Positions 12,662 to 60,501 of a DNA stretch of 64,000 nucleotides are shown here, piece after piece. Where the stretch lies: the NCBI GenBank assembly GCA_044361115.1, contig JBIKJH010000001.1:228593-292592 (forward strand). Reading direction: 5' to 3'. The position numbers and the translations under genes were made by a program. Below the pieces are notes generated by a model that saw only the letters and a list, made by a program, of their open reading frames with translations, searched no databases and was not told the origin of the DNA. How positions within the stretch are numbered: position 1 is the first letter of the stretch; each line of letters begins with the position of its first letter. Source of the DNA: Crocinitomicaceae bacterium. GTDB lineage: Bacteria > Bacteroidota > Bacteroidia > Flavobacteriales_D > Crocinitomicaceae.

Positions 12662-12692
12662 TTTATAATTCGTGATTTGTGATTAGTGACTA
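12651..12692. repeat. GTGATTY heptamer array (about 6 units)
   Basis: ttgattt gtgattt ataattc gtgattt gtgatta gtgacta, spanning the stop codon of the upstream CDS. Confidence 0.7.
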
Positions 12693-27759: not shown

Positions 27760-27985
27760 ACTTTAGGATATTAAGACTTTAAGACAAAGGACTTCAGGAC
27801 AGCAAGACTTCAGGACATCAAGACATCAAGACATCAAGACATCAAGACTTTAGGACTTTAGGAAGAAAGACAAAGTACAAAAGACTTAGAATGTTAGAAT
27901 AAAGAATTCCAGTGATTTAATACTAACAAGTCTTTTAGCGAAGCGGTCTTTTGTCTTACAGCGAAGCGGTCCTTTGTCCTTACTC
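27760..27985. repeat. intergenic repeat block: an 8-bp tandem array plus long-range inverted repeats
   Basis: 'atcaagac' occurs 4 times at ~27807-27848, with 'gacttcaggac' and 'gactttagga' variants. aagacaaaggac (27781) is complementary to gtcctttgtc-ctt (27970). aagacaaag.acaaaagac is complementary to gtcttttgtctt (27946). Confidence 0.75.
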
Positions 27986-29934: not shown

Positions 29935-30007
29935 GATTCCGTAGCTCAGCTGGTAGAGCAATACACTTTTAATGTATGGGCCCTGGGTTCGAATCCCAGC
30001 GGGATCA
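29935..30007 (+). tRNA. tRNA-Lys (anticodon TTT)
   Basis: GATTCCGTAGCTCAGCTGGTAGAGC...CTTTTAA anticodon loop...GGTTCGAATCCCAGCGGGATCA. The cloverleaf folds by eye. Confidence 0.93.
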
Positions 30008-30013
30008 CAAGAA

Positions 30014-30040: not shown

Positions 30041-30213
30041 GTTTAAATAATTCAGAATTGACACTACTTTCGCAGATTCGAATTCATTTGGGGAAATCAA
30101 AAAAACACAACTAAATCGGCAGCAAATAAGCCAGCAGAATTTTTAATCTATCTTGCTTGATGGAAAACAACTTAAACCTTGTTACCATTCTATTTAAGCC
30201 CTGTTTCATTTTG

Positions 30214-30462
30214 ATGAAAAGAACAAATAAAACAGCAAATTTTTTGACAATTAATAGGTTTAAAAATAACAAATTTCATGTCCATTTTTATTTGAATAAA
30301 CAAAGACATAAAAATGAACTTTATCCCCTCTACATTCACATCTATGTCGAAAGCGCTCGATCCGAAATTGCGAGCACTCAGCATGTAAATCTGAAGTCTT
30401 GGGAAAGCGTCAAAATCTGCCTAAAACCAAGCGTACAAAATGCAATTTGCTTGAACAGTTAA
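30214..30462 (+). pseudogene. truncated tyrosine integrase (Arm DNA-binding N-terminal region only)
   Basis: MKRTNKTANF..FHVHFYLNKQRHKNELYPLYIHIYVESARSEIASTQHVNLKSWES matches the pattern 'V.FYL.K....PLY..I....R.E..T......W' of Bacteroidetes integrase N-termini. It stops after 82 aa, so the catalytic domain is absent. Confidence 0.55.
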
Positions 30463-33492: not shown

Positions 33493-33729
33493 ATCCATTT
33501 AGCTCCGAAGCAACTGATTTGAAAATCGTTAAACGACATTCGAAAGAAACCATCAATTGAAGAATGCTTTACATAAAAAGAAACTCTTGAGAAGCGTTTG
33601 AATGAATATCTCCCTAAAATTGCGCGCATTTCAGAGGTGTAAATTGAACCGTAATAAATTATTGAAACCGAATTACAAGGATAACAGAACGTTCATAATT
33701 ACACCATCACCTAAAAATAGAATAGTTGC

Positions 33730-33903
33730 TCAAAGAAATACCAACACTGCTTCTACTGCAATAGTACCATTGGCTTCTAATTGCAATAATTGTCCAGTTT
33801 GAATTGTAGTAGGATGGTTTCCTACTTTTACTTGGGAAGCTGTCCTTGTTGTAAATACTCCTACTAGAAGAAGTAAGAGTAAATAATTGTTTGATTTGTT
33901 CCT
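33730..33903 (-). pseudogene. orphan 5' fragment of a paralogue of the glycine-rich gene (35230..36693)
   Basis: The reverse strand reads (AGG)NKSNNYLLLLLLVGVFTTRTASQVKVGNHPTTIQTGQLLQLEANG...stop. Compare MNKSNSYLFLLLLVGLFTTKAAAQVKIGNNPTTIGNSSLLELES. AGG replaces the ATG. Confidence 0.7.
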
Positions 33904-33917
33904 GCTATATTAGGTTA

Positions 33918-35162
33918 TTAATTCATTTCTTCTAGTACCCAAGTACTATTTGTATTCTTTAAATAATAAAGCGAAGGGGTACCTCTGGTAACATATTTTA
34001 AATAGCTATCTTTTTCCTCCGGGTGATAAAAAACTATGCTAGGATATTTATCTTCTTCAATTTGTGTACTTTCGGTTTCACACTTGGTACAAATGGCTAA
34101 CACCTTCTGTGTGGTATTTTTTAGTTGTTCTAATACCTCTTTACACGAACCACAACTGTTAGAATAAAAAAGTAGCACAATTTTATTCTCGTTTGTTTGA
34201 ATGAAGGATTTTATAGGTATTGGAATATCAAAAGGTTGTCCTATTTTAAAATTTTCATGCATTAAAAGTTTGGATTCCCATGCAATTAATTGATTTTCAC
34301 TAGCCTTTTTTAGTTGTAACATTTTTTTTAGAGCTATAACAAAATAAGTATTAGTACTATTATAATCGTAATTAGTATTAATCCAGTTATCTATAAAGAC
34401 TATGCCTTCTTCGGTTTTACCGATGTTAAAAAGTAAACTATCTATAAAACCTTCAAAATGGCTGAGCTCATTTTCATGCACTTTTTTCTGGTCTATCCAC
34501 CATTTATTTAAAACCCTATTCATCAATGGCGTATGAAATAAATAGGATTCATTGGGTGTAAGATTGTTCCAAAATGTACTTAAATAGACACTATTATCTG
34601 AATTTTCTAGATACATTAAATAATTATCCCATTGGGTACTGTTGTTTTTTATACTCTCCTCCAGCTCCTTTAGCTGTTGATTAATGTTTTGACCCAAAGT
34701 ATCTTTAAGGTTAAACAAACCGTAATCTTTGAAAACCAATTGATTATCGATATTAAATTTTAGCTGTTGCTGGAGTAAATTCCATTTAAATTTCGATTGG
34801 TTAAGTACAAACGATTGCGGCGCATTATCAAAAAACACATAATTGTTAGATGGATTCCAAAAAATAGTGTGTGTATTTTCATTACTGTCTATCACTACAT
34901 CTATAAAAGAAGATTCTTGAAGTATATGATCCTTAGCATAATAAATAGAGTAGATGCCCTCCTTAAGGGTTCGAACATCTAATATTGCTTTACCCTCCGT
35001 TACATTGGCTTGACTAAGGGGTTGATTTTTGGTATTGTTTGGGTAATATGAAAACAAATACACATGTCCTTCCTTAAAAGCAGGAGGTAAATACACTGTT
35101 ATTTGAGCCCTTGCAGACACCAAACACACAAAGCATAGCGCTATGTAAATTAACTTTTTCAT
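33918..35162 (-). CDS. secreted thioredoxin-fold protein (CGSC) with an N-terminal domain of unknown function
   Basis: Signal peptide MKKLIYIALCFVCLVSARAQ. The C-terminal region LLFYSNSCGSCKEVLEQL...TPSLYYL is thioredoxin-like. Confidence 0.75.
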   Translation of the reverse strand: MKKLIYIALCFVCLVSARAQITVYLPPAFKEGHVYLFSYYPNNTKNQPLSQANVTEGKAILDVRTLKEGIYSIYYAKDHILQESSFIDVVIDSNENTHTIFWNPSNNYVFFDNAPQSFVLNQSKFKWNLLQQQLKFNIDNQLVFKDYGLFNLKDTLGQNINQQLKELEESIKNNSTQWDNYLMYLENSDNSVYLSTFWNNLTPNESYLFHTPLMNRVLNKWWIDQKKVHENELSHFEGFIDSLLFNIGKTEEGIVFIDNWINTNYDYNSTNTYFVIALKKMLQLKKASENQLIAWESKLLMHENFKIGQPFDIPIPIKSFIQTNENKIVLLFYSNSCGSCKEVLEQLKNTTQKVLAICTKCETESTQIEEDKYPSIVFYHPEEKDSYLKYVTRGTPSLYYLKNTNSTWVLEEMN

Positions 35163-35176
35163 ATTCTGTTTTAGTA

Positions 35177-35218
35177 AACAGCAACACCCCATTTCTTTGT
35201 GAATGGGGTGTTACTGTT
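35177..35218 (-). terminator. intercistronic hairpin (15-bp stem, one mismatch)
   Basis: aacagcaacacccca-tttctttgtgaa-tggggtgttactgtt, between the stop at 35230 and the start at 35162. There is no clear U-tract. Confidence 0.4.
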
Positions 35219-35229
35219 TGTATTTTATA

Positions 35230-36693
35230 TTAAGGGCAGGTATAAGTAATTACAACCCTTCCATCACCACCAGAACCTCCAGTTGAATCATTACAAGCAG
35301 AATTTATTCCCCCTCCAGCTCCTGAGCCACCTGGTTGTGCACCATTACCTCCATTTCCACTTGAAGATGTACCACCAGCCCCTCCTGAAGGACCCGCACC
35401 AGCTACTCCTCCTCTTCCATTGACATTACAAGATGAAAAAGTGCCATTTACACCACTAGCTCCATTAGTATTTACATCTCCTCCTGTAGCCGTAACAGCA
35501 ACACCGCCTCCAAAAGGAGTAGTACCTTCACCGCCACGACCGCCACGTGCAGTTATGGTGTTAGAGGCATAAGTAATAATAGAATTGCCCCCTGCAACTC
35601 CATCCGCTGTAGTTATACCTCCACTACCTCCATTACCTACAGTATAGCTTATGCTAGTATTACCTGATGAAACCGTATAAAGTTTTAGGGTATAAGCACC
35701 ACTACCCCCTGAACCTCCGATTTGATCGGGTGCACAACCCCCGCAAGCGCCACCGCCACCACCGCCAGCGCCATACGCTTCTGCTTGGAATGATACGATA
35801 TCTGTGCCAGGAATTGTAAGAGTGCCTGAACCTGATGAATTGAAGGTTCTCCTGTAGTCATTAACTGTATATAGTTTTCCAACTCTATAATTGGTGCCAG
35901 TTTTTAAAGCATGTATGTAAACATTACCTGTATTTACTCCTGTTAGCAAACCAGTAGATGAGTTAATAGTAGCATTACCGGTATTATTCGATACCCAACT
36001 AGACAAACCTGTTCCTGTAGCAGTTTGTGTACAGGTCGTTAAAATAGTTTTACTTAAGGTAGGCGTTACAGTTACATCTAAGGTATTTGAACAGGTTAAC
36101 CCATTCTTTACAAAAGTAGCAGTTACCACCCCTGTTGATGGCACTGTGCCGCCTAGGGTGTAGGTAATGGTGAGCGAACCACCACCTGGTATTGCAGTAG
36201 TGGTAGAAGGAGATACAGAAGCGATGGTTAAACCCGATGCCCCTGATAATGTTACATCAGATGTAGCAGGTGTAATAGAACCCTCAAACAAAGAATTGTT
36301 TACTAACGTTACTTTAAAAGATTTAGCTCCTAAAATACTTACAGACTCCCCAGGTGCATAAGTACCCAGAAAACCATTGGTGTTAGGATCGCAGTTGGCA
36401 GAAATTGCACTTGGACCACCCCCACTTAGGCAACCCGACCATGCTCCGTTTTCATAACTTTTTGCGCATTTAGACGACATGTCATACACAAACATTCCAT
36501 CTACAGGGTTTGCTATAGCACTGGTATTTGCAACTCTGGGTAATACTAGCCCTTTGTTGGTGCTTTCCAGTTCTAACAGCGAACTGTTGCCGATGGTGGT
36601 AGGGTTGTTACCAATTTTTACTTGGGCAGCAGCCTTTGTTGTAAATAATCCTACTAATAGTAGTAAGAATAGATAACTGTTTGATTTGTTCAT
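35230..36693 (-). CDS. secreted protein with a C-terminal glycine-rich domain (phage-fibre-associated type); distant member of the island N-terminal family
   Basis: Signal peptide, then QVKIGNNPTTIGNSSLLELESTNKGLVLPRV. C-terminal AYGAGGGGGGACGG..GGSGGSGAY..VGNGGSGG..ARGGRGGEG..GGAGG..GGSGGDGRVVITYTCP. Confidence 0.8.
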   Translation of the reverse strand: MNKSNSYLFLLLLVGLFTTKAAAQVKIGNNPTTIGNSSLLELESTNKGLVLPRVANTSAIANPVDGMFVYDMSSKCAKSYENGAWSGCLSGGGPSAISANCDPNTNGFLGTYAPGESVSILGAKSFKVTLVNNSLFEGSITPATSDVTLSGASGLTIASVSPSTTTAIPGGGSLTITYTLGGTVPSTGVVTATFVKNGLTCSNTLDVTVTPTLSKTILTTCTQTATGTGLSSWVSNNTGNATINSSTGLLTGVNTGNVYIHALKTGTNYRVGKLYTVNDYRRTFNSSGSGTLTIPGTDIVSFQAEAYGAGGGGGGACGGCAPDQIGGSGGSGAYTLKLYTVSSGNTSISYTVGNGGSGGITTADGVAGGNSIITYASNTITARGGRGGEGTTPFGGGVAVTATGGDVNTNGASGVNGTFSSCNVNGRGGVAGAGPSGGAGGTSSSGNGGNGAQPGGSGAGGGINSACNDSTGGSGGDGRVVITYTCP

Positions 36694-36726
36694 AATATAT
36701 TATTTATTTTTAGTTTAAGTTTTTTT

Positions 36727-36799
36727 TCTTTGTGTTCTTTGTGTTCTTTGTGTTCTTTGTGTTCTTTGTGTTCATTGTGTTCTTTTTGTCTTTGTAGTG
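36727..36799. repeat. 9-bp tandem repeat (gtgttcttt, about 6-7 units)
   Basis: tctttgtgttctttgtgttctttgtgttctttgtgttctttgtgttcattgtgttcttt... It directly abuts the homology breakpoint of the neighbouring gene fragment. Confidence 0.85.
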
Positions 36800-36845
36800 T
36801 TTTTTATTTACCAAGGAGGCACTGAGGGCCCTGAGATTTTTAGTT

Positions 36846-37033
36846 TTTAGTTCATTTCCTGTTAAGCGAGGAGCCATAATACCATCTGCAATGGTCGTAG
36901 CTCAAGGGTCTCCAACAACCTGAAGCCTTGTATGCGGACTTATCGTTCCTTCGCCAACTTGTGCATGTACTTGTGCGCTGAAAAAGAGTGCACTGAAAAA
37001 GAGAATGTTTGTTTTCATAAAGTTGTATTTCAT
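36846..37033 (-). pseudogene. orphan 5' fragment of a tail-fibre-like paralogue (in-frame stop, truncated)
   Basis: MKYNFMKTNILFFSALFFSAQVHAQVGEGTISPHTRLQVVGDP*ATTIADGIMAPRLTGNELK. There are long identical nucleotide runs with 38684-38800, for example ttcatttcctgttaagcgaggagccataat. Confidence 0.8.
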
Positions 37034-37063
37034 ATATTATTTGGTTTGCTTTTATTTACTAAT

Positions 37064-37101
37064 TCAAAGAAATCGAATCTAAGCTGATTCGATTTCTTTG
37101 A
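37064..37101 (-). terminator. 14-bp perfect hairpin 22 nt after the stop of the 37123 gene
   Basis: caaagaaatcgaat-ctaagctg-attcgatttctttg. There is no U-tract on either strand. Confidence 0.45.
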
Positions 37102-37122
37102 AATGGGATTAAAAAAATGGGT

Positions 37123-38853
37123 TTACTTCTTTGTTAATTTCTCTACCAAGCCCTTCAACTCGTCTAGTTGTTTTTGCTGGTCTTCTAGCTGGACTTGTTG
37201 CTTTTCTATTTGGACTTGTTGATTAACATTCTGAGCTTGCTGTTTTTCTAGTTGTAACAACAATCCCTTTGTAGCACTCAAATTAAGTATGGTAAGACGG
37301 TCATAATCTATATTGCGGAAATCTGACACCTCTTTACCATAGACAAATGCTTCTTTAGTAGTTAACTTAGTGTTGATACTTAGTTGATTGTTAGCTGTAG
37401 CTACAACTTGCGCTGTTTTCTCGGTTTCTACTTTGTTTTCCAACACATAAAACTTAATTACATCACCCACCGCAATATCACTGCTATTAATTCCCATAAA
37501 AACAGTTTGTTCTCCAACGGTTTTTACCTCAGCTTTGCTGTATACATTGGGGATGAATTCTTTGCCTTTTAATACTGCTTCTGGAAATACGGCCTCTACA
37601 TCTTGCGCAAAAACACCTGTTTTGATGCCATCACCTTTTGTTTTTGTATCTTTATAACTGTATTTTAAGATGTTTAATTTAGCAACGGTGTTTAACGACG
37701 CCATATGATCTACTGTTCCTTGTTTTACTTTAATACGTGCATCCGAATAGGCTCTAAATTCATGACCTGTTGCAATCAGACCTGTAGCGTAGATACTCGC
37801 AGGTGTATTAACCGATGAAGCTGTTCCATTGCCTACATTGTTTAAGTATCCATAGTTACCAGACATGTTACTTCCACCTACTCCATTTACGTGAAGCTTT
37901 GCAATAACAGTAGTTGTATTTATACCCACATTTCCTGCGGTAGTAATCATTAATCGAGGTTGCCCAACTGATTCATCCGCAATAGCAAAGGAACCAACAA
38001 AATCTGGTCTTGAAGCCACAGACCACGTTCTATTTGTGCCTACACTTTCTAAATACAAGGCACTTGAAGCATAATTGCCACTTGTACCTTTTATGTGTAA
38101 CCTTGATAAAGGCGTAGTTATACCCATTCCAATATAACCGTCGTCTGTAATTCTCATCCTCTCTACAGCGACAGAACCAGCTGGAGATGAACCAAAGGCT
38201 AAATGATGATTATGGTTTATAGAACCTGTATGGATACCTTCGATATATGCACCTCTTCCAGATCCTGAACCCATTAGAATTCTTGAACTGTGACTTACAC
38301 CTGTCCCACCAGTGGAATTATTGCCTATGACCAATCCTGGAAATATATTTGATACAGAAGAACCTCTGATCTCCAAACTTAGGTTTGGAGTATTGGTACC
38401 AATTCCAACTCTGTCGTTCGTTCCATCAATAAACAAGGTGTTGTTATCAAAATTTAGGTTATCGGTTACACCTACGGTTCTTCCCGCTCCGACTGTTCCG
38501 TTGGTGGTGTATAGGTTTTCCATTGCTGTTCCAGGTACCAATTTTTGCCAAACCGTTCCATCGAAATAGTAGTAACCCACCGATAAAACATTCGCTGTTT
38601 TGGTGGTTGGACCTGTAACGGCAGATGTTATGTAGACCATGGCACCGATTTCATCCGTTCCGTAAACTGCATCCTTCGCTTTTAGTTCATTTCCTGTTAA
38701 GCGAGGAGCCATAATGCCATCTGCAATGGTCGTAATTCCGGGGTCTCCAACAACCTGAAGCGTTGTCTGCGGACTTGTCGTTCCTACGCCAACTTGACTT
38801 TGCGCGTATTGGTTTACGGATATTAGTGCAGCGATAATAAAAATTTGTTTCAT
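37123..38853 (-). CDS. tail-fibre-like secreted protein with a C-terminal S74 intramolecular-chaperone domain (P1)
   Basis: The ATG at 38853 gives the signal peptide MKQIFIIAALISVNQYAQSQ. Repeated G.VGIGT..P...L.V.G motifs are present. Also SDARIK...GVFAQDVEAVFPEAV (endosialidase-chaperone signature) and a terminal coiled coil. Confidence 0.85.
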   Translation of the reverse strand: MKQIFIIAALISVNQYAQSQVGVGTTSPQTTLQVVGDPGITTIADGIMAPRLTGNELKAKDAVYGTDEIGAMVYITSAVTGPTTKTANVLSVGYYYFDGTVWQKLVPGTAMENLYTTNGTVGAGRTVGVTDNLNFDNNTLFIDGTNDRVGIGTNTPNLSLEIRGSSVSNIFPGLVIGNNSTGGTGVSHSSRILMGSGSGRGAYIEGIHTGSINHNHHLAFGSSPAGSVAVERMRITDDGYIGMGITTPLSRLHIKGTSGNYASSALYLESVGTNRTWSVASRPDFVGSFAIADESVGQPRLMITTAGNVGINTTTVIAKLHVNGVGGSNMSGNYGYLNNVGNGTASSVNTPASIYATGLIATGHEFRAYSDARIKVKQGTVDHMASLNTVAKLNILKYSYKDTKTKGDGIKTGVFAQDVEAVFPEAVLKGKEFIPNVYSKAEVKTVGEQTVFMGINSSDIAVGDVIKFYVLENKVETEKTAQVVATANNQLSINTKLTTKEAFVYGKEVSDFRNIDYDRLTILNLSATKGLLLQLEKQQAQNVNQQVQIEKQQVQLEDQQKQLDELKGLVEKLTKK

Positions 38854-38958
38854 GAAAAATTGAAATAGAGTGAATAAATGGACCACGTTGTTTAATCGTT
38901 ATTTGCTTAACCAATTCAAATAATGCGTGAAATTAGCTGGGTCTGCCTTAGGGGGGTA

Positions 38959-38974
38959 TACCTACTACTAGGTT
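38959..38974. promoter_or_regulatory. island 7-2-7 palindrome upstream of P1
   Basis: TACCTAC-TA-CTAGGTT, ~105 nt upstream of the ATG at 38853. Confidence 0.5.
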
Positions 38975-39338
38975 ATTTCACTAATTGGTTGAATAACTTT
39001 CAATTGCACCTAAATCTCTGCAGCGACAAACAAGCTGATTTGAGTCAATGAATGAATGGATTGATTCTTTCCTGTAAAAATAACGCTAACGAAGTTTAGT
39101 TGATTGTATATTATTTGGATGGTTGTGTACGTGCTGACAAACTTCTTCCGCGATACATTGTATCACTCCGATTCTTTATTCACCAGTGTTTCCAATTGCT
39201 TTTTGAAAAAGTTGGATTTGTTAAATAAGTCTCAATATTCGGGATTTTAAAATAGTTGGGGTTATCCATTTCCCATTTAATTAAAAAAATTAATTTTATG
39301 CCCTTAAATATTGATTATGAATAACATTACTACCATAA

Positions 39339-39370
39339 TACCTAATATTGGGTATACCTACCAATGGGAT
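39339..39370. promoter_or_regulatory. two abutting island palindromes upstream of the sensor kinase
   Basis: TACCTAA-TA-TTGGGTA, immediately followed by TACCTAC-CA-ATGGGAT. The second ends 35 nt before the ATG at 39405. Confidence 0.55.
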
Positions 39371-39404
39371 AATCGCATTAGTTTTGGTCTTAAATAAAAA
39401 TAAA

Positions 39405-41369
39405 ATGACCGCTCACGTTAAATTTAGAATGCTGCTTTTTACCCTTGCTCTAGCGTTCAGCCACACCACTTTTGCATTGCAAAATCCGTTTTTTAAAAAC
39501 ATTCCACAATTAACGGATCCCGAAGTTTATTTGAAACAAATTAAACACTTTGCCGAAACAGATGATTGTTTGATTCATACCAAGCATTTTATGAAAATTT
39601 ATGCGCGTAATGGGTTAAAACTTTTACCTCAGCATATTAATGAACTCCGCGCAATTAATAAATTATTAATTAGCAAATCGACTGAATATAGGGGCTATGC
39701 TATTTATTCGAATGCCTTATGTTTTTTCTCTGAAGGCAACTATCAGCAGGCTTTAACCATTTTAAATAAGGAACTAGTTAAACTTGGTAAAAAAGGAAAT
39801 CCAGAGCTTAAGTTTTATTTAGTAGGGTTGAAAGCATCGTGTTATTACTTTCTTGGAGACTTTGACCAATCAACTAAATTTTACTTGAAGGCCTTAAAAA
39901 CGTATAAGGTGGAGTATGATCGAAAGTATACCATTTATCAAAACATTGGATCTAATTTTTATGCTCTACGTTTGTCGGATAAAGCGCTTGAATACTATTT
40001 AAAAGCAGATGAACATTATAAGCATAAAAAAAATGATATACTGATGTTTATCACTTGGATCTATACAGATTTTCAGGATTTTAAAAATGCGGATAAGTAT
40101 GCTGGCTATTTAATAGCGAATCAATCAATGATGACGGATTTTGAATTAACAGCACTATACGAAACACTGGCTAAAATTGAACATATTAAACAAAATAACG
40201 TGAAAGCTTTAGAGCTGATGGATCAATCAATAGCTATCCTAAAAAATAACAATGTTTCTACTTTCGATTTGATAAATATAGATTATATATTAATCTCAAA
40301 GTTGGCTATTAAAGGTGAAATTTTAATGGATTTAAAGAAGTATAGCGCAGCCTTAGATGTTTTTAATGAAGGTTTGGCAATTGCTAAAAAAACCAATAGG
40401 ACAATAAGTGAAATTGAAATTTATCAAAATCTATACAATGTATCCAAATTATTAGGTCAAAATGACAAGGCTCTTTTTTATTTAGAGCGTTTTAATAAAT
40501 TAGAAGACGATCTACATAAAAAAGAACTTAAAAGTGAAATTGTCAAGCTTGAACGGGTGTACAATTTTGAAAAGAAAAATACGGATATAAAAATTCTGCA
40601 AAATGATAAAAAAATCAAGCAAATTGAAATTCAAAAATCCAAGCAGTATATACTTTTGTTAACTATCACAATCTTACTTGTTTCAATTGGTTTGTTCACA
40701 CTTTTCAAATTGAATATTGATAGCAAGAAAAAAAATGCGCTGAAGATAGATTTACTAGTAAAGAATACAGAATTACAGTTAGTGAAATCACAATTGATGG
40801 GACAAGAAATTGAAAAATCGCGCATTTCACAAGAATTACATGATGGGGTGGCAAATAATCTTTTATCCTTGATATATGCGAATGAAAATACGCTAAAAGA
40901 ACCTTTACGGGCAATTTATAACGAAATACGCATTATTTCCCATAACTTATCGACTGTTGCAATTCGGAACAATAGTTCATTAAAGGAAATAGTGCTGGAA
41001 CTATTTTATCGTATTTTTGACGAACAAGAAGTGACGCTTGACTTGATATGGGATAAAAAAAATGAAACATTTATGTGTGAAGAAGAGGTTAATTTAGTGC
41101 TTTATCGTGTTTTTCAAGAGTTGTTTATCAACATTGTAAAGCATGCTGAAGCAACCTCTGTGATTATTGAATTTCAAAAAGATGCACATGAGTTTACAAT
41201 CGTTATTGCAGATGATGGAAAGGGTCCTGATAAAAAAACGCAAGGAATTGGACTTAGCAATATTGAGGATCGAATTAAAACGATAACTGGTCGTTTTAGT
41301 ATTCTTTTTAACACCCAATACAAGCAAAAGACAATGGGTGCTGTTTCAAGTATTGTTATTCCTATTTAA
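39405..41369 (+). CDS. TPR-containing sensor histidine kinase (HisKA_3 / HATPase_c)
   Basis: Signal/TM segment, TPR-like helical repeats, TM helix ILLLTITILLVSIGLFTLF, H-box SRISQELHDGVANNL, and ATPase motifs ADDGKG..GIGLSNIEDR. Confidence 0.88.
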   Translation: MTAHVKFRMLLFTLALAFSHTTFALQNPFFKNIPQLTDPEVYLKQIKHFAETDDCLIHTKHFMKIYARNGLKLLPQHINELRAINKLLISKSTEYRGYAIYSNALCFFSEGNYQQALTILNKELVKLGKKGNPELKFYLVGLKASCYYFLGDFDQSTKFYLKALKTYKVEYDRKYTIYQNIGSNFYALRLSDKALEYYLKADEHYKHKKNDILMFITWIYTDFQDFKNADKYAGYLIANQSMMTDFELTALYETLAKIEHIKQNNVKALELMDQSIAILKNNNVSTFDLINIDYILISKLAIKGEILMDLKKYSAALDVFNEGLAIAKKTNRTISEIEIYQNLYNVSKLLGQNDKALFYLERFNKLEDDLHKKELKSEIVKLERVYNFEKKNTDIKILQNDKKIKQIEIQKSKQYILLLTITILLVSIGLFTLFKLNIDSKKKNALKIDLLVKNTELQLVKSQLMGQEIEKSRISQELHDGVANNLLSLIYANENTLKEPLRAIYNEIRIISHNLSTVAIRNNSSLKEIVLELFYRIFDEQEVTLDLIWDKKNETFMCEEEVNLVLYRVFQELFINIVKHAEATSVIIEFQKDAHEFTIVIADDGKGPDKKTQGIGLSNIEDRIKTITGRFSILFNTQYKQKTMGAVSSIVIPI

Positions 41370-41380
41370 TACTACAAGTG

Positions 41381-42049
41381 ATGTTAGATATACTTCTCGT
41401 AGATGATCATAAATTATTCCTCGAAGGAATCAAGGGTATTTTAATTCAAAATCCAAAAGTAAATAGCGTTACTATGTTGACCGAACCCAAAAAAGTATTG
41501 CCTTTTTTGATTTCGCATAAAACGGATGTTTTGTTTACCGACTTAAATATGCCTGATTTCGACGGAATTGACTTAATACAAAAAGTAAGAAATGAACATC
41601 CTAAAGTAAAAATTTGTGTTCTGACAATGTATTATAACTTTAATCTGTTGGCCTCACTAAAAAAGCACCATGTTGATGCTTATTTACATAAAAGTATGGA
41701 GGTTTCAGAGTTTGACGATGCACTGGAAGCCATTAACAGAAATGAACGTTATTATTCCTATGAACCTGCAAAAGTTAATCAAGCGTACGATCTTATTGTA
41801 AACAAGGAAAAAGAAGGCGAAAACATTAAAGACGATTTTATCCGAAAACACATGCTTTCACCACGCGAATTTGAGGTATTGAAATTAATTGTTGAAAATT
41901 ATTCCACAAAAGAAATTGCTGAGAAACTCTTCTTATCCGAACTAACAATATCAACGTATAGGAAATACATCATTAAAAAAACGGGATGTAAAACGGCCGT
42001 TGAATTGTATAAATATGCACTTGATGCCGGAATAATGAAACACGATTAG
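41381..42049 (+). CDS. NarL/FixJ (LuxR-type HTH) response regulator
   Basis: REC domain ILLVDDHKLF...DLNMPDFDG. C-terminal GerE HTH LSPREFEVLKLIVENYSTKEIAEKLFLSELTISTYRKYI. Confidence 0.9.
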   Translation: MLDILLVDDHKLFLEGIKGILIQNPKVNSVTMLTEPKKVLPFLISHKTDVLFTDLNMPDFDGIDLIQKVRNEHPKVKICVLTMYYNFNLLASLKKHHVDAYLHKSMEVSEFDDALEAINRNERYYSYEPAKVNQAYDLIVNKEKEGENIKDDFIRKHMLSPREFEVLKLIVENYSTKEIAEKLFLSELTISTYRKYIIKKTGCKTAVELYKYALDAGIMKHD

Positions 42050-42449
42050 CGTTTCAATCATTCGATTTCGCTATTTTTTTATTTAGATTTTCGACACAAA
42101 CAATGCCTGTAATTCTATTATAAGTAACATGTTAATTCTCCCTACTGGGATTGATATTTCTTCATACCTATCCTCTTGTTGACCAAGCAAAAAGTCATTT
42201 ACGCGAGTGCTACTATGACATACAAATTCAATCTTTATTCAATAATGCCATAAGGGTTAGTAAAATAAAATCTAAATCTATTGCGCTTTTTGCGTCGTTT
42301 GAACATGCAACTCAATATCTTTCAACAAGGCTTATTCACCGGAGCAAAATTCCGATAAAAGAAAAACCCAACAGTGAGAACTTACGTCTTACTGTTGAGT
42401 CTATCAATTGAAAAGAACAATTGTTCCTTGAATTCAGTTTAGTTGTCGG

Positions 42450-42558
42450 TTAAATGCAGCGTCTTTTCTGGTTTGTTGTACCTATTCCTACCTGTGCATG
42501 CCCCAATTCAGCGCAAATAATTATTAGAAGTGCTACTGAATTTTCCTTAAGCCGTCAC
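42450..42558 (-). pseudogene. orphan 5' fragment of a tail-fibre-like paralogue
   Basis: The reverse strand reads (V)TALKENSVALLIIICAELGHAQVGIGTTNQKRRCI*. Compare the P2 N-terminus ..LVCVGLANAQVGIGTTNPQTT. It lies directly 3' of P2. Confidence 0.6.
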
Positions 42559-42595: not shown

Positions 42596-44119
42596 TTACT
42601 TTTGCTTCTCTTTCTTTAAATCTTCAATTTCTTTTCTCAAAGTCTCTATTTGAACTTGTTGATCCTGAATTGCCTTAACCAAAAGAGGTGTCAATTTTCC
42701 ATAATCAACCCCCCATGGGTTTTTAGTTTCATCTTCTCCACCCGCAGAAACTGCGTTAGGATAAATACCGTGGAGTTGTTGTGCCAAAAATCCAGTTTGT
42801 GGGTCTTCATGGTTTTTATCTGTTTTATAATAATAATCAGCCACTTTTATTTTCATCAAGTCATTAATACCATAAGCTGTTTCTTTGATGTTTTCTTTTA
42901 AACGAATATCAGAGGTTGTAGTGTAATTAACACCACCAAAAGCGATTGGATTAATTCTGCCTATAACTGAACCTCCTGCACTTTTAAACGAAATCAATTG
43001 ATTTGTAACACCATTAGTTGTTGAAGTAGTTTGAATACTCACAACTCCATCTAAATTTGTACCATTCCCAATTACATCCAAATCAGCGTTAGGAACGATA
43101 ACACCAATTCCGATATGTCCTTTTTCGTCCATTCTAAGTCCACTGATAGTTCCGGCTGATGACCATGGTGCAATAACTAATCCGTTAGTACTATTAGAAG
43201 CGTTATTATTGTCTGTACTAAAAATTATTCGTGCATCTCCAGCTTGCACAATGTCATTAAATGCGTTAACGGTAGATGATTTGGGTTCGAAAGATAGAAA
43301 TGAACCATTATTAGTTAAGCGCATTGCCGTGTTACCACTTGTAGTGATATCATCATTGGTAACTGATAATTTAAACAAGGGATTTGTTGTCCCAATACCC
43401 ACATTCCCATTGGCCAATATTCTCATTTTCTCTGTAGGTGCCGCACCAGAGCTTGTGGCAAATGCTAAATCATGATCATTATTTATAACGCCTGTATGGA
43501 TACCTTCTACATATGCACCTCGTGCTGCTCCAGAACCTAATATAATCCTTGCGCTATGACTTGTACCTCCAGTTGCACTCGTATTTCGTAATAATAAACC
43601 CGAAAAAACATTCGACCCATTGCTAGAGCCACTTATTTCCAAACTATTAGCGGGTGCTGTTGTACCGATACCAACTCTATTATTTGTGGCATCAATTACA
43701 AATGTACCAGCATCGAAATTCACAACATCGTCTACACCGACTGTTCTTCCTGTGCCAATCGTTCCATTTGTAGTATAGATATTTTCTTGTGCTGTACCAT
43801 TGACTAATTTTTGCCAAACGGTACCATCAAAATAAAAGTAGCCCGGTGATGTTACATTGATTGTTTTTGCAGATGCAGTTCCTACGGAAGCAGTAACATA
43901 AACAATGGCTCCGATTTCGTTTGAACTATACACAGCATCTTTCGCTTTCAGTTCATTTCCTGTTAAACGAGGAGCCATAACACCATCAGCTATTGTCGCA
44001 ACTCCAGGGTCCCCAACAACTTGTAACGTTGTCTGCGGATTTGTCGTTCCTATTCCTACCTGTGCATTCGCCAATCCGACACAAACTAAGGTAATTAATG
44101 TTGCTAGATTTTTTTTCAT
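42596..44119 (-). CDS. tail-fibre-like secreted protein with a C-terminal S74 intramolecular-chaperone domain (P2)
   Basis: N-terminal ~150 aa are near-collinear with P1 (TTLQVVGDPG, MAPRLTGNELKAKDAVY, FDGTVWQKLV, YTTNGT). Also SDIRLKENI...GFLAQQLHGIYPNAV and a terminal coiled coil. Confidence 0.85.
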   Translation of the reverse strand: MKKNLATLITLVCVGLANAQVGIGTTNPQTTLQVVGDPGVATIADGVMAPRLTGNELKAKDAVYSSNEIGAIVYVTASVGTASAKTINVTSPGYFYFDGTVWQKLVNGTAQENIYTTNGTIGTGRTVGVDDVVNFDAGTFVIDATNNRVGIGTTAPANSLEISGSSNGSNVFSGLLLRNTSATGGTSHSARIILGSGAARGAYVEGIHTGVINNDHDLAFATSSGAAPTEKMRILANGNVGIGTTNPLFKLSVTNDDITTSGNTAMRLTNNGSFLSFEPKSSTVNAFNDIVQAGDARIIFSTDNNNASNSTNGLVIAPWSSAGTISGLRMDEKGHIGIGVIVPNADLDVIGNGTNLDGVVSIQTTSTTNGVTNQLISFKSAGGSVIGRINPIAFGGVNYTTTSDIRLKENIKETAYGINDLMKIKVADYYYKTDKNHEDPQTGFLAQQLHGIYPNAVSAGGEDETKNPWGVDYGKLTPLLVKAIQDQQVQIETLRKEIEDLKKEKQK

Positions 44120-44160: not shown

Positions 44161-45627
44161 TTACTCTATTTTCGAAATTTTGAAAGATTCAGAATGATTG
44201 TCATCAAATACGACGAGGTAATACAAGCCATTTGCGAATTCACTCATATCAATTGTTGTTTGAAATTGATCTTCCTGCAAGCTTATTTTTTCGATTGTTT
44301 GGCCATTTCCGTTGATTATTTGATAGCTAGAAATTGGGAATTCATTTGAAGCAAGGTTGAGTGCGTTGATTACTGGATTTGGAAAAACCTGAAAGACGTG
44401 TTCCTGGGCATCATCAATGCTGACTGAACGAATAGCTGAAAAGGTAAAATTTCCATCAAAATCTGTTTGTTTCAAGCGGTAATAACTTAAACCAGAATAC
44501 GGATCGATATCCTCACTTTCGTAGGCTCTTGTTCCTTGTGAAAAGCCAGCTCCATCAATCGTTGACACGAAATCCCAATCTTCACCATTTTGGGTGCGCT
44601 CTATGGTGAAATAGTCGTTGTTGATTTCGGAATACGTTTTCCATGTTAAATCCACTTTTCTTAACGCTTTATTGTAGACTGCATCGAAGTTCAACAGGGT
44701 AATTGGCAATGGATTGGCAGAGGTTGAGCTCGCTAAGGTAAAAGGGCTGAACGAAGTTACAGCGCTAGTTGTTTCAATTGTACCAGCAGTAGTATTTCCT
44801 GATGTTCCGCCATTGCCTAGATCCAACCACGTAGTTCCATCCCACTTTGCCACACGAAGGTCGTTAATGGCAGTTACACCACACGATGTATTTGAATCCC
44901 AAGATAAGTGCACCTTCACATTGGAAGAACCGTTGGTTCGATTCAACATCCAGTATTCACAACTCGAAATATGATCTAAAGTAAGGTCAAGTGAATTGTC
45001 GGCATAGGTTGGACCTGGATCTGCGTGGATATACGAACATTCAAACCGGTCTGTCGAATTGCTGGGTGCAGTTATAGAAACTTCTCGTACATACGTCCCA
45101 TCACCAACAGGAAATGTAAATGCCGTATTTCCAATTTTAGCAACCGTACCAACGATATGAGAATCATTGGAAGAATTGAAATGGGCTGCTGTATTGCGAA
45201 AAACCAGCTGATTATTGCCTGTTACAATATTTCCATTAACAAACGTAATTTCTTTAGAAACTTGTAAATCATTATTCGAAATCGGTGAAATTCCACTTGA
45301 AATGTTATTCATTTCAATATCGGAATAAAGCGAAAAAAAGCAATCGATTAGAATTCCGTTCGCATCGATTGTTTGTGTGTTTGTACCACGGAATTCGATT
45401 TCTCCATCTCCCGTCACACTTGAATTTGAATTGAACGAAATATTATCCGATTCAATGCGTAAAACACCATCATTATCCAACACACCTTGTTGATTAGTTA
45501 GTATATCAGTTTCTCCTATTGTTACAGTTGCGTTTGGCCCAATATACATGTCTGTGCCTAAGAAGAATTGCCCATTCGAAATGAATGTCATAAGCACAAG
45601 GCTTATAGTACTAAGTAACTTTTTCAT
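44161..45627 (-). CDS. secreted protein with a T9SS C-terminal sorting domain
   Basis: Signal peptide MKKLLSTISLVLMTFISNGQ. C-terminal VFPNPVINALNLAS...NGLYYLVVFDDNHSESFKISKIE. Confidence 0.8.
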   Translation of the reverse strand: MKKLLSTISLVLMTFISNGQFFLGTDMYIGPNATVTIGETDILTNQQGVLDNDGVLRIESDNISFNSNSSVTGDGEIEFRGTNTQTIDANGILIDCFFSLYSDIEMNNISSGISPISNNDLQVSKEITFVNGNIVTGNNQLVFRNTAAHFNSSNDSHIVGTVAKIGNTAFTFPVGDGTYVREVSITAPSNSTDRFECSYIHADPGPTYADNSLDLTLDHISSCEYWMLNRTNGSSNVKVHLSWDSNTSCGVTAINDLRVAKWDGTTWLDLGNGGTSGNTTAGTIETTSAVTSFSPFTLASSTSANPLPITLLNFDAVYNKALRKVDLTWKTYSEINNDYFTIERTQNGEDWDFVSTIDGAGFSQGTRAYESEDIDPYSGLSYYRLKQTDFDGNFTFSAIRSVSIDDAQEHVFQVFPNPVINALNLASNEFPISSYQIINGNGQTIEKISLQEDQFQTTIDMSEFANGLYYLVVFDDNHSESFKISKIE

Positions 45628-45655: not shown

Positions 45656-46819
45656 TTAATTCCCTAGATAAATAAAAGTGTTTACACTTAAGCTCTTTGG
45701 TGTAATGTCTAATGCGGTACCACTGCCTCCCAAAGGAACATTATGGGTATGACCTGGTAATGCACTGCCTGAAAAGGTGTGCGTATGATTTGGTTCTGCA
45801 TCTGTCGAAACTAAATTTCCAGATGCACCGTCCGAAAAAACACCAGGGGTTGGTCCACCTGTTACACCTGTCCTATACCTAATAAAAGCACTCAAATTAT
45901 GCGAATGCGCACCGCCGCCGCCGATAGTACCGCTTGGGGTACCTGCAGTAACTGAAGCTGCTGTTAAATTTATATTGGGTAAATTGGCTTGCGTGATTGT
46001 TTTACTGTTTGATCCACTTACACTTCCCAGCGCTGTTCCATTTTGAATTAAACAAGAGTTTGTTGCATCAGGCAAGTTTGTAACAATACCAAGCGCCGTA
46101 GCTCGGATTTGCTGATCTGCAGAAAGTGTAGACTTTACTCTACCGTCTAGCTTGACCCATCCGCCATGATCGACAGTTTGGATACCCGTTTTAATATCAC
46201 CATAGGTCATATTGGGAACATTTACCCAGTTTGGTGCACTTCCAGCACCGTTACTTACCAAGACCTGACCAGCAGTGCCAGCGGTATTATTTGGCATCAA
46301 TGCTCCCGAGAATTTAACATTTCCAGTAAGATCTAATTTTTCTGTTGGTGTAGATGTGCCGATACCAATTCGGTTATTTGTTCCATCAAGAAATAAGGTT
46401 CCGGCATCGAAATTCACGGTATTTGTTACATTGACCGTTCTTCCACTTCCAATTGTTCCGTTAGTCGTATAAATATTGTCAGTACTAGAACCTGTAACGA
46501 TTCGTTGCCAAACACTGCCATCGTAATAAAAATAGCCTGTCGAATTCACGTTCGTTGTTTTCGCAGAGGCAGAAGTAACTGCAGCAGAAACATAAACGAT
46601 TGTTCCCCTGTGATCTGACCCGTAAACAGCATCTTTCGCTTTCAGTTCGTTTCCTGTCAATGTGGGTGCAATCATTCCATCGGCGATTGTACTGTTTGTA
46701 GGCGCTCCTTTTACGTCTAAGGTTGTTGCTGGAGATGTTGTGCCAATCCCTACTTGTGAGAAGGCATTAAATTGTACACTGATTACTAGTGCTGCAATTG
46801 GTAAAAATTTTTTAAACAT
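45656..46819 (-). CDS. secreted protein with the shared N-terminal module and a phage tail-collar (MdpB-like) C-terminal domain (P3)
   Basis: N-terminal QVGIGTTSPATTL..LTGNELKAKDAVYGS..NIYTTNGTIGSGRTV..DGTNNRIGIGT. C-terminal GDIKTG...GWVKLDGR...LPD...HSH..HTHTF..GHTHNV...LSVNTFIYLGN. Confidence 0.8.
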   Translation of the reverse strand: MFKKFLPIAALVISVQFNAFSQVGIGTTSPATTLDVKGAPTNSTIADGMIAPTLTGNELKAKDAVYGSDHRGTIVYVSAAVTSASAKTTNVNSTGYFYYDGSVWQRIVTGSSTDNIYTTNGTIGSGRTVNVTNTVNFDAGTLFLDGTNNRIGIGTSTPTEKLDLTGNVKFSGALMPNNTAGTAGQVLVSNGAGSAPNWVNVPNMTYGDIKTGIQTVDHGGWVKLDGRVKSTLSADQQIRATALGIVTNLPDATNSCLIQNGTALGSVSGSNSKTITQANLPNINLTAASVTAGTPSGTIGGGGAHSHNLSAFIRYRTGVTGGPTPGVFSDGASGNLVSTDAEPNHTHTFSGSALPGHTHNVPLGGSGTALDITPKSLSVNTFIYLGN

Positions 46820-53805: not shown

Positions 53806-53819
53806 AATCTAAAGAATTT

Positions 53820-53868
53820 GTGATTCGTGATTCGTGATTTGTGATTCGTGATTTGTGATTTGTGATTC
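53820..53868. repeat. GTGATTY heptamer tandem array (7 units)
   Basis: gtgattc gtgattc gtgattt gtgattc gtgattt gtgattt gtgattc, between the panB stop and the rluA-like start. Confidence 0.9.
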
Positions 53869-54752: not shown

Positions 54753-54808
54753 TAGATTCGTGATTCGTAATTCATGATTCGTGATTCGTGATTCGTGATT
54801 CATGATTA
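54753..54808. repeat. GTGATTY-family heptamer tandem array (8 units)
   Basis: tagattc gtgattc gtaattc atgattc gtgattc gtgattc gtgattc atgatta, upstream of panB. Confidence 0.9.
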
Positions 54809-58538: not shown

Positions 58539-60461
58539 TTGAAAAGCAAAGCAACGTTTGATTCGCTTTGTCGTTTAGAGAATGTGAATCGCTACTTAAT
58601 TTTGTTCGTATTTTTTTTTCTTTCTATTGCTAGTTGGAGTCAAGTAGACCAATCTGCGAATTCAAATTTAGAAACGGACGTTGAAGATACAATTCGCTTG
58701 TATTTAATTCCTACTCCACAAATTGACACAAGAGCGTTCATTCAGCCAATTACTGTTCCTCCTATCTCTTATCCACCACCTTACCCTCACGATTACCCTC
58801 CTTATGTTTGGCAATTTCCTATTTCACCTACAATTGGTTATCCTACAATTGGTTATTATATTGTACAACCAATCTGTGGGGAAACGCGCCACCCGAATGG
58901 AAAACTTTCAAGTCGAATTGCATGTAAAAAGGGTATTCGACATGGGAAATCAGAATATTTTAATGAGAAAGGTATAAAAACACAAGAAGATTATTACCTC
59001 CAAGGAAAGTTTATTTCTGGTAAATCCTATAATTCGAAAGGTAAATTGCTTTCATGGGTAAACTACGATGGAAAAGGTGAATTACACGGTATTAATTGGT
59101 CGTTCGATGAACAAGAACAGAAAAAAATTATCACACATTATTTGCATGGCATCGAACATGGTACACGACAAGAATTTCTAAATGGTAACTTGAATTTACA
59201 AGAAGAATACGATCATGGAACTGTCGTTGATAGGAAATATTATTTTGAAAATAATCGCCTATATGAACACATTGTTTACTACAATGGATCGATATTGGAG
59301 CATACAACATTTTATGAAAAAGGTGGGATAAACACTTATGCTTTAAGTGATTCAAGCGGAAACCGTGTCGTTGATTACACCAAAAATGAACGTGGAATTA
59401 TCAATTCCGAAAGACATTATTTAAACAATGCACCCGTAGGAACAACACTTGAATCATATGATGATTTAACTGGATATAAATTAACCGCAGACTACCAAAA
59501 CGGCTTTATTCAAGCTTCTTATGAATACAACAAATCAATTCTAGTTCGAAAAAAGCACTTTACAAATGGGCAATTTGATTCCTTGATTAGTTTCTATTCA
59601 ACTGGCGACACGTCAGAATTGCTGCTTGCTGGGTTGAAATACCATCAACAAAAATGGAATTCGAAACGTGAGAAAACCGACGATTATAGGTATTACCATG
59701 AGATTTTCTTTGGCAGCGGTCATTTCACAAAGCAAGATACGACGTATGTCTTCGAAGCACCGAATGATCCAAATTCGTATAATCAAGATCCGATTAAACT
59801 TTGGGTGATTTACAAAAACGACACCTTGCGCTTGGATTACATTAACAACAATAAAAACATTACTAACCAATCCGGTCCATTTGTTTTAAACCGAAATCAT
59901 TTTGTGTATGATTCAATTTCCAATTCATTTGTTCGTAACGGTCAATGGTCGAACTTCAACGGAAATGTGATAACAGAAGTGATCACCTATAAAAGCGGAA
60001 TTTTAGACGGTGGGTATATTCATTATAATGAATCGAATCCACCCATTCCAATTATTACAGGTCATTATGCAGCTGGACAAAAAGATGGCTTGTGGATCAC
60101 TAAATACGGGGAAACCGAAATGGCAAGCTATTCAAAAGGCATTTTAAACGGATCTTACAAAAGGTTTGACAGTCAAACGGTTTTACTTGAAAACGGAACA
60201 TTTAGCAACGGTCAAATAATTGGCGATTATATAACTTATCATAGCAATTCAAACAGGAAATCCGTCGTAACTTTTGCCCAAGGACAAGAAATTGGTCATG
60301 AAAAACGATTTGACTCCAACGACCGATTATTCAGTGAAGGTAGCATCAAGCGTAACTTGAATTCGAACTCCCCTAAACAATTCAAAGCAATAGGAAAATG
60401 GTTTTACTTTACCTATAAATCTAATGGGAAGGTGAAACGAAAGACTGTTAAAATCAAATAA
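58539..60461 (+). CDS. MORN-variant (YwqK-like) repeat protein
   Basis: Many G.x.Y...G repeats (GKSEYFNEKGI.., GELHGINWSF.., GIEHGTRQEF..). The start is non-ATG and uncertain (TTG 58539 or GTG 58584). Confidence 0.75.
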   Translation: MKSKATFDSLCRLENVNRYLILFVFFFLSIASWSQVDQSANSNLETDVEDTIRLYLIPTPQIDTRAFIQPITVPPISYPPPYPHDYPPYVWQFPISPTIGYPTIGYYIVQPICGETRHPNGKLSSRIACKKGIRHGKSEYFNEKGIKTQEDYYLQGKFISGKSYNSKGKLLSWVNYDGKGELHGINWSFDEQEQKKIITHYLHGIEHGTRQEFLNGNLNLQEEYDHGTVVDRKYYFENNRLYEHIVYYNGSILEHTTFYEKGGINTYALSDSSGNRVVDYTKNERGIINSERHYLNNAPVGTTLESYDDLTGYKLTADYQNGFIQASYEYNKSILVRKKHFTNGQFDSLISFYSTGDTSELLLAGLKYHQQKWNSKREKTDDYRYYHEIFFGSGHFTKQDTTYVFEAPNDPNSYNQDPIKLWVIYKNDTLRLDYINNNKNITNQSGPFVLNRNHFVYDSISNSFVRNGQWSNFNGNVITEVITYKSGILDGGYIHYNESNPPIPIITGHYAAGQKDGLWITKYGETEMASYSKGILNGSYKRFDSQTVLLENGTFSNGQIIGDYITYHSNSNRKSVVTFAQGQEIGHEKRFDSNDRLFSEGSIKRNLNSNSPKQFKAIGKWFYFTYKSNGKVKRKTVKIK

Positions 60462-60500
60462 TATTTGAATATTTGAATATTTGAATATTTGAATATTTGA
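60461..60500. repeat. five copies of an 8-bp tandem repeat filling the whole convergent intergenic gap
   Basis: atatttga x5, between the stop at 60459-60461 and the minus-strand stop at 60502-60504. Confidence 0.9.
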
Positions 60501-60501
60501 A

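Follow-up and report, generated by a model that had tools for sequence, protein, structure and literature searches.

The window analysed here is a 64,000-nucleotide stretch from a Crocinitomicaceae bacterium (contig JBIKJH010000001.1, positions 228,593 to 292,592), and it contains an island of four genes, P1 to P4, for predicted phage-tail-fibre-like proteins with a conserved N-terminal module, together with three short copies of only their 5' ends (frag1, frag2 and frag3; Table 1). We found that these orphan stubs carry inactivating mutations and that the locus is arranged differently in related strains, with junctions falling in the repeated 5' module. The reading we favour, which we hold to be probable with real room for doubt, is that this conserved module serves as a direct-repeat substrate for recombination by which fibre genes are lost or fused among strains, the stubs being both remnants of the process and partners in it.

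Three 5' fragments and their decay

Aligning the window against itself with BLASTN recovered all three fragments. frag1 matched P1 at 92.3% identity over 117 nt (36845-36961 against 38680-38796, E=1.6e-42), the core of frag2 matched the 5' end of P2 at 88.9% identity over 36 nt (42472-42507 against 44040-44075, E=1.3e-5), and frag3 matched the 5' end of P4 at 80.9% identity over 110 nt (33803-33912 against 36593-36702, E=1.9e-22). The translations given in the first-pass annotation, an earlier reading of the letters alone, were confirmed, as was the change of the frag3 start codon from ATG to AGG. Its statement that each fragment lies just 3' of a full-length paralogue is borne out by position and by best match: each is closest to the gene directly upstream, with frag1 following P1, frag2 following P2 and frag3 following the pair formed by P4 and a thioredoxin-like gene. 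No inverted module copies were seen in the self-alignment, and every fibre gene and stub has the same orientation; the 5' modules therefore form direct repeats.

The homology of frag1 (read as MK..FSAQVHAQVGEGTISPHTRLQVVGDP-stop-ATTIADGIMAPRLTGNELK) to P1 lies wholly in the mature N-terminal module, and its signal peptide is unlike that of P1, so the similarity is not a mere low-complexity resemblance between signal peptides. The frag1 module is 92% identical to that of P1, 81% to that of P2 and 60% to that of P3. As had been noted, the match to P1 ends abruptly, at 36845. Directly past this point comes a 2x9-bp repeat (CTCAGGGCC CTCAGTGCC), followed by an array of a 9-bp unit (AACACAAAG on the minus strand). 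Of the two elements previously described beside frag1, the tandem array stands and the REP-like (repetitive extragenic palindromic) element does not: it occurs once in the window, so it is no dispersed repeat, and it proved to be the 2x9-bp tandem duplication. We also observed that the 9-bp array lies 30-100 nt upstream of the P4 start and is in frame with the frag1 module, the frame remaining open up to a stop ~17 nt before the P4 ATG.

In frag2 (..ALLIIICAELGHAQVGIGTTNQKRRCI-stop) there is no start codon: a signal-peptide remnant without ATG is followed by AQVGIGTTN and, soon after, a stop. Its spacer and signal-peptide part is 62% identical to the region upstream of P2 itself, so the repeated unit here comprises spacer, signal peptide and module start. 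frag3 stops after 57 codons and has 67% protein identity to P4 over 43 aa. Rfam and tRNA scans of the stubs returned nothing. A search for an intact parent of frag1 with a repaired 58-aa peptide gave only the 43-aa open reading frame (ORF) already called there, and local searches with its spacer and signal peptide found no such parent either. The sequence past each stub has no similarity to any collected family protein, and no fibre 3' remnant was seen. Decayed variable 3' sequence would be hard to recognise, and the pattern of 5' ends only is not contradicted; that bias is partly one of ascertainment, because paralogy within a single window reveals the conserved 5' part alone.

Of the nine differences between frag1 and P1, seven are nonsynonymous or nonsense and two synonymous; between the intact genes P1 and P2, this 117-nt stretch shows 5 nonsynonymous changes against 14 synonymous ones (Fisher p=0.017 against the frag1-P1 pattern). 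The TGA of frag1 stands at codon 39, in the frame of the called 43-aa ORF. Start loss or a premature stop, truncation relative to paralogues and relaxed constraint were each looked for and found. Judged from their sequence, the three fragments are pseudogene remnants, because of the TGA in frag1, the lost ATG in frag2 and frag3, and the relaxed constraint in frag1. The proposal that they are silent 5' donor copies is not supported: the stubs contain the conserved part only and have no diversity to donate, and they carry inactivating mutations and signs of relaxed constraint. A silent-cassette system of the pilE/pilS type was rejected likewise, as no variable fibre sequence is stored in the stubs.

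The fragments might alternatively be functional, either as small secreted peptides or as retained 5' leader and promoter sequences for the gene that follows (frag1, for instance, might supply a promoter reading into P4), which would explain why only 5' ends survive. In the window and in two related strains (L003 and L004, described below), the 43-codon ORF of frag1 retains its ATG and signal peptide and ends at the same stop, with the module part 98-99% identical across strains; in addition, a hairpin past P1 and the lack of a TAnnTTTG motif directly upstream of P4 mean that P4 may depend on a promoter upstream of frag1. Set against this, frag2 and frag3 are without start codons, the gene following frag2 is convergent and leaves it nothing to drive, frag2 is heavily altered in L004 (HERLGTIN..), and the substitution pattern of frag1 is that of a pseudogene. 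We therefore regard a function for the fragments as very unlikely.

Alternative arrangements in related strains

Related loci (numbered from L001) were found by exact-protein look-ups in metagenomes. Several of them, from independent assemblies of several samples (L001/L006, L007, L008 and L011-L013), share 99.8-100% identity with the window, and the fragments recur in them, with frag3 identical in L011-L013. The three types of arrangement described here come from metagenomes ERZ27272088, JGI 3300034117, 3300059473, 3300051785 and 3300042314, SRR35795011 and SRR27335567. The sole indel among these window-type contigs consists of two units of the 9-bp array, which has five copies in the window and L007, four in L003, three in L001 and two in L004. 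Intergenic tandem arrays of short period (7-8 nt) also occur elsewhere in the window (12652-12689, 27760-27863, 53816-53868, 54755-54807 and 60460-60502), and the (ATTCGTG)n array near 54.8 kb is apparently much expanded in L004; variable short arrays spread across the window look like a genome-wide feature, not one specific to the stubs.

A comparison across strains, which the first-pass annotation had named as informative, revealed alternative arrangements in L004/L005 and in L003. L004 (JGI 3300051785) and L005 (SRR35795011) are independent assemblies with flanks 96-97% identical to the window. In both, the body of P2 is absent and one stub follows the gene for a protein sorted by the type IX secretion system (T9SS): homology runs from the T9SS gene into the upstream region of the P2 site and then jumps to the sequence past frag2. 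This stub (stub2) has an ATG and a P2-like signal peptide, then the frag2-typical NQKRRCI-stop and the frag2 downstream sequence. On the other side of the histidine kinase gene in L004, the upstream region and signal peptide of P1 join the frag1 module directly (stub1). The stub1 module has all nine frag1-specific changes and the TGA, and past it lie the 2x9-bp repeat known from the window, a 9-bp array with fewer copies, and P4. The P1 body, the P1 hairpin and frag1's own spacer and signal peptide (36962-37062) are missing from L004; this last segment is 100% identical in L003. Both L004 indels end inside direct repeats (117 nt and 36 nt), one copy being the 5' module of a full gene and the other its downstream stub, and the stub1 crossover must lie within 10 nt, CAAGTTGGCG, where signal peptide and module adjoin.

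L003 (JGI 3300042314) is a single 3.5-kb contig in which the 3' end of the T9SS gene is 100% identical to the window and is followed by a third variant of spacer and signal peptide. The N-module behind it is 99-100% identical to that of window P2, and the sequence changes to the P1 body within a 17-nt run, TTAACAGGAAATGAACT; past the P1 body come frag1 and then P4. The P2 body, frag2, both two-component genes and the P1 5' end are lacking. From its sequence, the L003 gene is a recombinant of the P2 and P1 modules. Its crossover falls no more than 17 nt from where frag1 stops matching P1; junctions recur at the module edges (L004 stub1 and L003). Deletion or replacement by recombination between 5' modules, as earlier suggested, is supported by the L004/L005 junctions in repeats and by the L003 chimera. 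Four fibres occur in one strain type and two in another; the third carries a chimera and has lost the regulators beside it.

An alternative would be that chance or low-complexity similarity, or an artefact of metagenome assembly, mimics repeats and polymorphism with no biological basis. The frag2 core match is just 36 nt long, L003 is one 3.5-kb contig, and contigs of several assemblies break in P4 or the thioredoxin-like gene. The E-values within the window (1e-42, 1e-22 and 1e-5), the recurrence of the fragments in independent assemblies from several samples, the agreement of the L004 and L005 junctions from two samples, and the private variants that L003 and L004 carry around their junctions all argue against it. 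Exact runs at the junctions measure just 10-17 nt, which is shorter than the k-mers that assemblers typically use (k127/k141 appear in the ENA contig names). We find this explanation hardly credible.

Mosaicism extends beyond the stubs. After the T9SS gene, the window, L003 and L004 diverge by 25-38% in the segment of spacer and signal peptide, between flanks that are 97-100% identical. Comparison of L003 with the window in P1 and P4 revealed 100-nt patches that alternate between 100% and 60-88% identity. In P3, the C-terminal ~100 residues (window 45688-46019, L004 10802-11125) are replaced in L004 by unrelated sequence, and the first ~270 residues and the last 11 (LSVNTFIYLGN) are conserved, a tip swap between conserved segments. 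Contigs of at least four independent assemblies (L001/L006, L004, L007, L011/L012) end in P4 or the thioredoxin-like gene (34028-36412), and the glycine-rich part of P4 is just 60-87% identical between L003 and the window; these contig ends and this divergence hint at more strain heterogeneity than short-read assembly can resolve. Look-ups with the P0161, P0165 and T9SS proteins gave no further arrangement, and a scan of genome contigs with the histidine kinase returned only an unrelated Firmicute.

Probable loss or possible capture of fibre genes

If the 5' modules recombine as direct repeats, each fragment would be what is left of an earlier fibre gene, namely its promoter-proximal spacer, its signal peptide and its first 12-57 codons, the body having been lost by non-homologous truncation. 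Such a truncation has to come first for each stub, since recombination between intact genes gives chimeras and not stubs. Exchange between the module of a full gene and the stub downstream would then remove the gene body and leave one hybrid stub, as may have happened in L004/L005 at P2 and in L004 at P1, and exchange between the modules of two full genes would place one 5' end on the other body with deletion of everything between, as in L003. The same modules would also undergo gene conversion and short-tract exchange, which would keep a stub similar to its upstream neighbour. The stubs are as much substrates as products of this process. Its net outcome would be rapid presence/absence and chimeric variation of surface fibres within one species, possibly with a selective benefit.

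An outgroup bears on polarity. In a sister species (L016/L017), whose kinase is 87% identical to that of the window, the kinase and regulator genes are flanked on one side by a gene for an outer-membrane protein and on the other by a fibre gene of another kind, whose C-terminus is Fib_succ_major-like and which forms a pair with a thioredoxin-like gene. Because kinase and regulator stand beside fibre genes there too, they were ancestrally in the fibre region and their loss in L003 is derived. L016 joins window position 33497 straight to 39227, so that 33498-39226 is gone as one block; the absence of this whole block in L016/L017 indicates that the island is fluid at the species level too. We also observed that a pair of fibre and thioredoxin-like genes recurs in L016 (12902-15321), where the partner is a 463-aa AhpC/Redoxin-like protein just 19% identical to that of the window; the recurrent pairing (33918-36693 in the window) suggests a functional link between the two.

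Several observations weigh against deletion between direct repeats. The L004 junctions fit either polarity: deletion from a window-like ancestor would be mechanistically simplest, and they would look no different had empty stubs of the L004 kind been ancestral and P1 and P2 been inserted into them. The L004 stub1 crossover fell in 10 nt of identity, although a 36-nt perfect run, where simple RecA-type recombination would be expected, lies at the other end of the repeat. L004 stub2 is no simple derivative, its upstream spacer and signal peptide being just 75% identical to those of window P2. L003 and the L004 stub1 junction each rest on one short-read metagenome contig. As to the origin of the stubs, no intact parent was found for frag1 and the sequence after the stubs matched no fibre gene, and no strain with another arrangement at frag3 came to light in a metagenome contig scan with the thioredoxin-like protein or in an exact look-up of this 414-aa sequence.

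A rival reading is a capture of cassettes, in which each stub acts as a resident landing pad (a promoter with a signal peptide and the opening codons of the module) and full genes arrive at the module, displacing the 5' copy downstream, either by a single crossover of a circular unit of module, body, spacer and signal peptide or by allelic replacement from another strain; the empty sites of the L004 type would then be ancestral. A Campbell-type single crossover in the module predicts the structure seen, in which a full gene is directly followed by another spacer, signal peptide and module start. The spacer and signal peptide of frag1 are unrelated to those of P1, next to a module that is 92% identical, several junctions sit at the boundary of signal peptide and module, segments of spacer and signal peptide act as exchangeable units between strains, and the block 33498-39226 is wholly missing in the sister species. 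However, no circular intermediate, donor array or recombinase was seen, the outgroup indicates loss for L003, and the empty stubs share their truncation junction and stop in all strains, so that a prior deletion is needed anyway. Deletion between direct repeats is also mechanistically simpler, and we consider capture of this kind possible but unlikely. A more specific variant is that the conserved 5' module, with its boundary to the signal peptide, acts as a built-in, recombinase-independent attachment site, at which units running from one module through body and spacer to the next signal peptide are excised and re-inserted, with stubs kept as expression sites that capture a new body by one homologous crossover. 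We think this distinctly unlikely; if true, fibres would be gained as well as lost, and the locus would be a cassette system for surface fibres in Bacteroidota.

Recombination between direct repeats, our preferred reading, does not seem to leave stubs throughout the family. JGI metagenome contigs were scanned with an alignment of the N-module, which gave 69 loci, and these were searched with two kinds of query, a hidden Markov model (HMM) of the module and the 5' end of each gene itself. Over all loci, window-like contigs included, 98 full-length genes were detected. Clear orphan 5' stubs outside this species were seen at one of the 69 loci, L021, an unrelated contig in which a 39-codon stub (59-178) closely precedes a family gene of 408 aa and an interrupted 5' copy (1591-1692) comes after that gene; another locus, L028, may hold a truncated gene. 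Reading of the short ORFs in L014/L015, from an NCBI metagenome-assembled genome with three tandem family genes and REP-rich spacers, gave no stub. The module HMM misses frag2 and frag3, and the sensitivity of this survey to very short or decayed stubs is limited accordingly. Stubs are thus a rare, occasional outcome and not a family-wide design.

These findings explain short "hypothetical" ORFs after fibre genes as recombination scars, and they offer a testable system for gene loss versus gene capture at repeated 5' modules. Surface fibres resembling tail fibres would likely determine what the bacterium sticks to and what sticks to the bacterium, such as phages and grazers.

The fibre island and known systems

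The island consists of all the long minus-strand ORFs in ~33.5-46.9 kb of the window, which has a G+C content of ~36% (Table 1). Housekeeping proteins encoded in the window belong to 90%-identity clusters, and the named members of these are from metagenome-assembled genomes labelled Flavobacteriia or Cryomorphaceae. Precomputed Pfam matches place the N-terminal domain PF26696 (PTL_trimer) in P1, P2, P3 and P4, after the signal peptide. A Pfam search of the island genes further found PF13884 (Peptidase_S74) at the C-terminal end of P1 (E=5.5e-12) and P2 (E=4.9e-11) and Gly_rich_2 in P4, with no match in P3. P1 and P2 match phage tail-fibre PHROGs, and P1 residues 175-370 match the sequence of Bd2133 in PDB 8OND (E=3e-7). 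The N-module HMM built here detected P1-P3 at E<1e-38 and frag1 at 5e-7, the P4 subtype being undetected. Both marks of the PF26696 fibre family, an N-module after a signal peptide and a variable C-terminus that often carries S74, were found, and P1-P4 are predicted to be cell-encoded, secreted, phage-tail-fibre-like proteins with a conserved N-module and variable shafts and tips.

Table 1. Fibre genes, 5' fragments and neighbouring features of the island (window coordinates)
Feature	Position	Strand	Remarks
frag3: duplicate of the P4 5' end (~10 nt ahead of the start plus ~57 codons)	33730..33912	-	ATG changed to AGG; right after the stop of the thioredoxin-like gene
Block of frag3, thioredoxin-like gene, P4, frag1, P1 and P1 upstream region	33498..39226	.	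missing as a unit in the sister species L016/L017
Thioredoxin-like lipoprotein gene	33918..35162	-	paired with P4; Pfam
P4 fibre-like gene	35230..36693	-	other N-terminal subtype, glycine-rich C-terminus; 5' end 36593-36702 is the repeat partner of frag3
Non-homologous stretch between frag1 and the P4 start	36694..36844	-	2x9-bp repeat (~36815-36835) and 9-bp variable-number tandem repeat (36726-36795)
frag1: orphan N-terminal fibre module	36845..36961	-	39 codons, in-frame TGA; self-BLASTN
Upstream spacer, start codons (37033, 37018) and signal peptide MKTNILFFSALFFSAQVHA of frag1	36962..37062	-	unrelated to those of P1
Terminator-like hairpin	37063..37102	-	directly past the P1 stop, ahead of frag1; inverted repeat in self-BLAST
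P1 full-length fibre gene	37123..38886	-	signal peptide, N-module 38680-38796, beta-helical shaft, Peptidase_S74 chaperone
Histidine kinase (TPR) and LuxR-type response regulator	39405..42049	+	between the two fibre blocks
frag2: decayed spacer, signal-peptide remnant without ATG, first ~12-17 N-module codons	42456..42598	-	right after the P2 stop
P2 full-length fibre gene	42596..44119	-	N-module 43946-44062, S74 chaperone
T9SS-sorted protein gene	44161-45591	-	between P3 and P2
P3 fibre gene	45656..46819	-	shares the N-module with P1 and P2

A tail-fibre module of a prophage or tailocin was rejected: no phage structural genes were seen near the fibre genes, whose neighbours by Pfam are the T9SS-sorted protein, the two-component system, the thioredoxin-like lipoprotein, an outer-membrane beta-barrel protein and peptidases, and IMG/VR gave just two weak relatives. 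Residues ~12-65 of P1 and P3 (signal peptide and module start) match phrog_9563, 13535 and 28668, profiles of unassigned function just 85-153 positions long, which suggests that short ORFs holding the N-module alone may also be annotated in viral or prophage records. The Bacteroidetes promoter motif TAnnTTTG was found upstream of P3 only. The two-component genes may regulate the fibres, as they lie inside the island and adjoin fibre genes in the sister species too. In the spacer between the response regulator and frag2 there is an 86-codon ORF (42151-42411, plus strand), called as a gene (83 aa) in L004/L005; it has no convincing Pfam match, and its region is missing in the sister species. About 3 kb from the island lies the signature of an old integrative element: a tRNA-Lys(TTT) at 29935-30008 and, after it, a truncated ORF for an integrase N-terminus (Arm-DNA-bind_5, 30157-30462). 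L016/L017 have this integrase fragment too.

Shufflons and other inversion systems of Bacteroides and Mycoplasma surface genes use inverted repeats and a dedicated recombinase and are reversible, with a conserved 5' segment as the crossover site. Here too a conserved 5' coding segment re-assorts variable bodies of surface proteins, but all copies are direct, Pfam found no recombinase domain in the long island genes and the outcomes are deletions. An invertible system was rejected on these grounds, the sole integrase trace around the 33-47 kb region being the truncated ORF just mentioned. An integron-like array was also rejected: Pfam detected no integrase among the island genes, the genes are not bounded by any structured repeat, and the spacers gave no Rfam match. 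A model resembling a diversity-generating retroelement was dismissed because its defining parts are absent.

Rhs and CdiA loci contain orphan 3' cassettes for a toxin and its immunity protein, which can take the place of the expressed tip, a conserved stretch shared with the full gene permitting homologous recombination. The tandem remnants described here likewise share a conserved stretch with a full gene. Unlike those orphans, they are 5' ends with nothing to donate, and the outcome is gene loss or fusion, not tip replacement. The contrast with polymorphic-toxin loci drawn in the first-pass annotation is sound as a description only, and a toxin-orphan model was rejected: no toxin or immunity domains were found by Pfam in the long island genes, and the sequences after the stubs match no family protein.

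Another likeness is to the mosaic adhesive trimer (MAT) fibres of Bdellovibrio bacteriovorus, such as Bd2133, whose report deals in title and abstract with chimeric fibre proteins and prey recognition (PMC10769870). Like the MAT fibres (PDB 8OND), the proteins predicted here would be secreted, cell-encoded trimers resembling tail fibres, in a chimeric family of paralogues with different tips; unlike them, they belong to Bacteroidota and carry the N-terminal module PF26696. The title and abstract of that report describe neither orphan 5' fragments nor deletions at the strain level. With the mosaicism of phage tail fibres the island shares its PHROG matches, the S74 domain (P1 and P2), exchange in conserved segments and a tip swap with a conserved end (P3). 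In contrast to phage, the genes are chromosomal, have Sec-type signal peptides and form direct repeats in one array, so that recombination alters gene content. No new class of mechanism is revealed, modular recombination in arrays of surface-fibre and adhesin genes being already known; the locus is a sequence-level example, in an uncultured freshwater flavobacterium, of a conserved N-terminal anchor module that would double as a recombination substrate.

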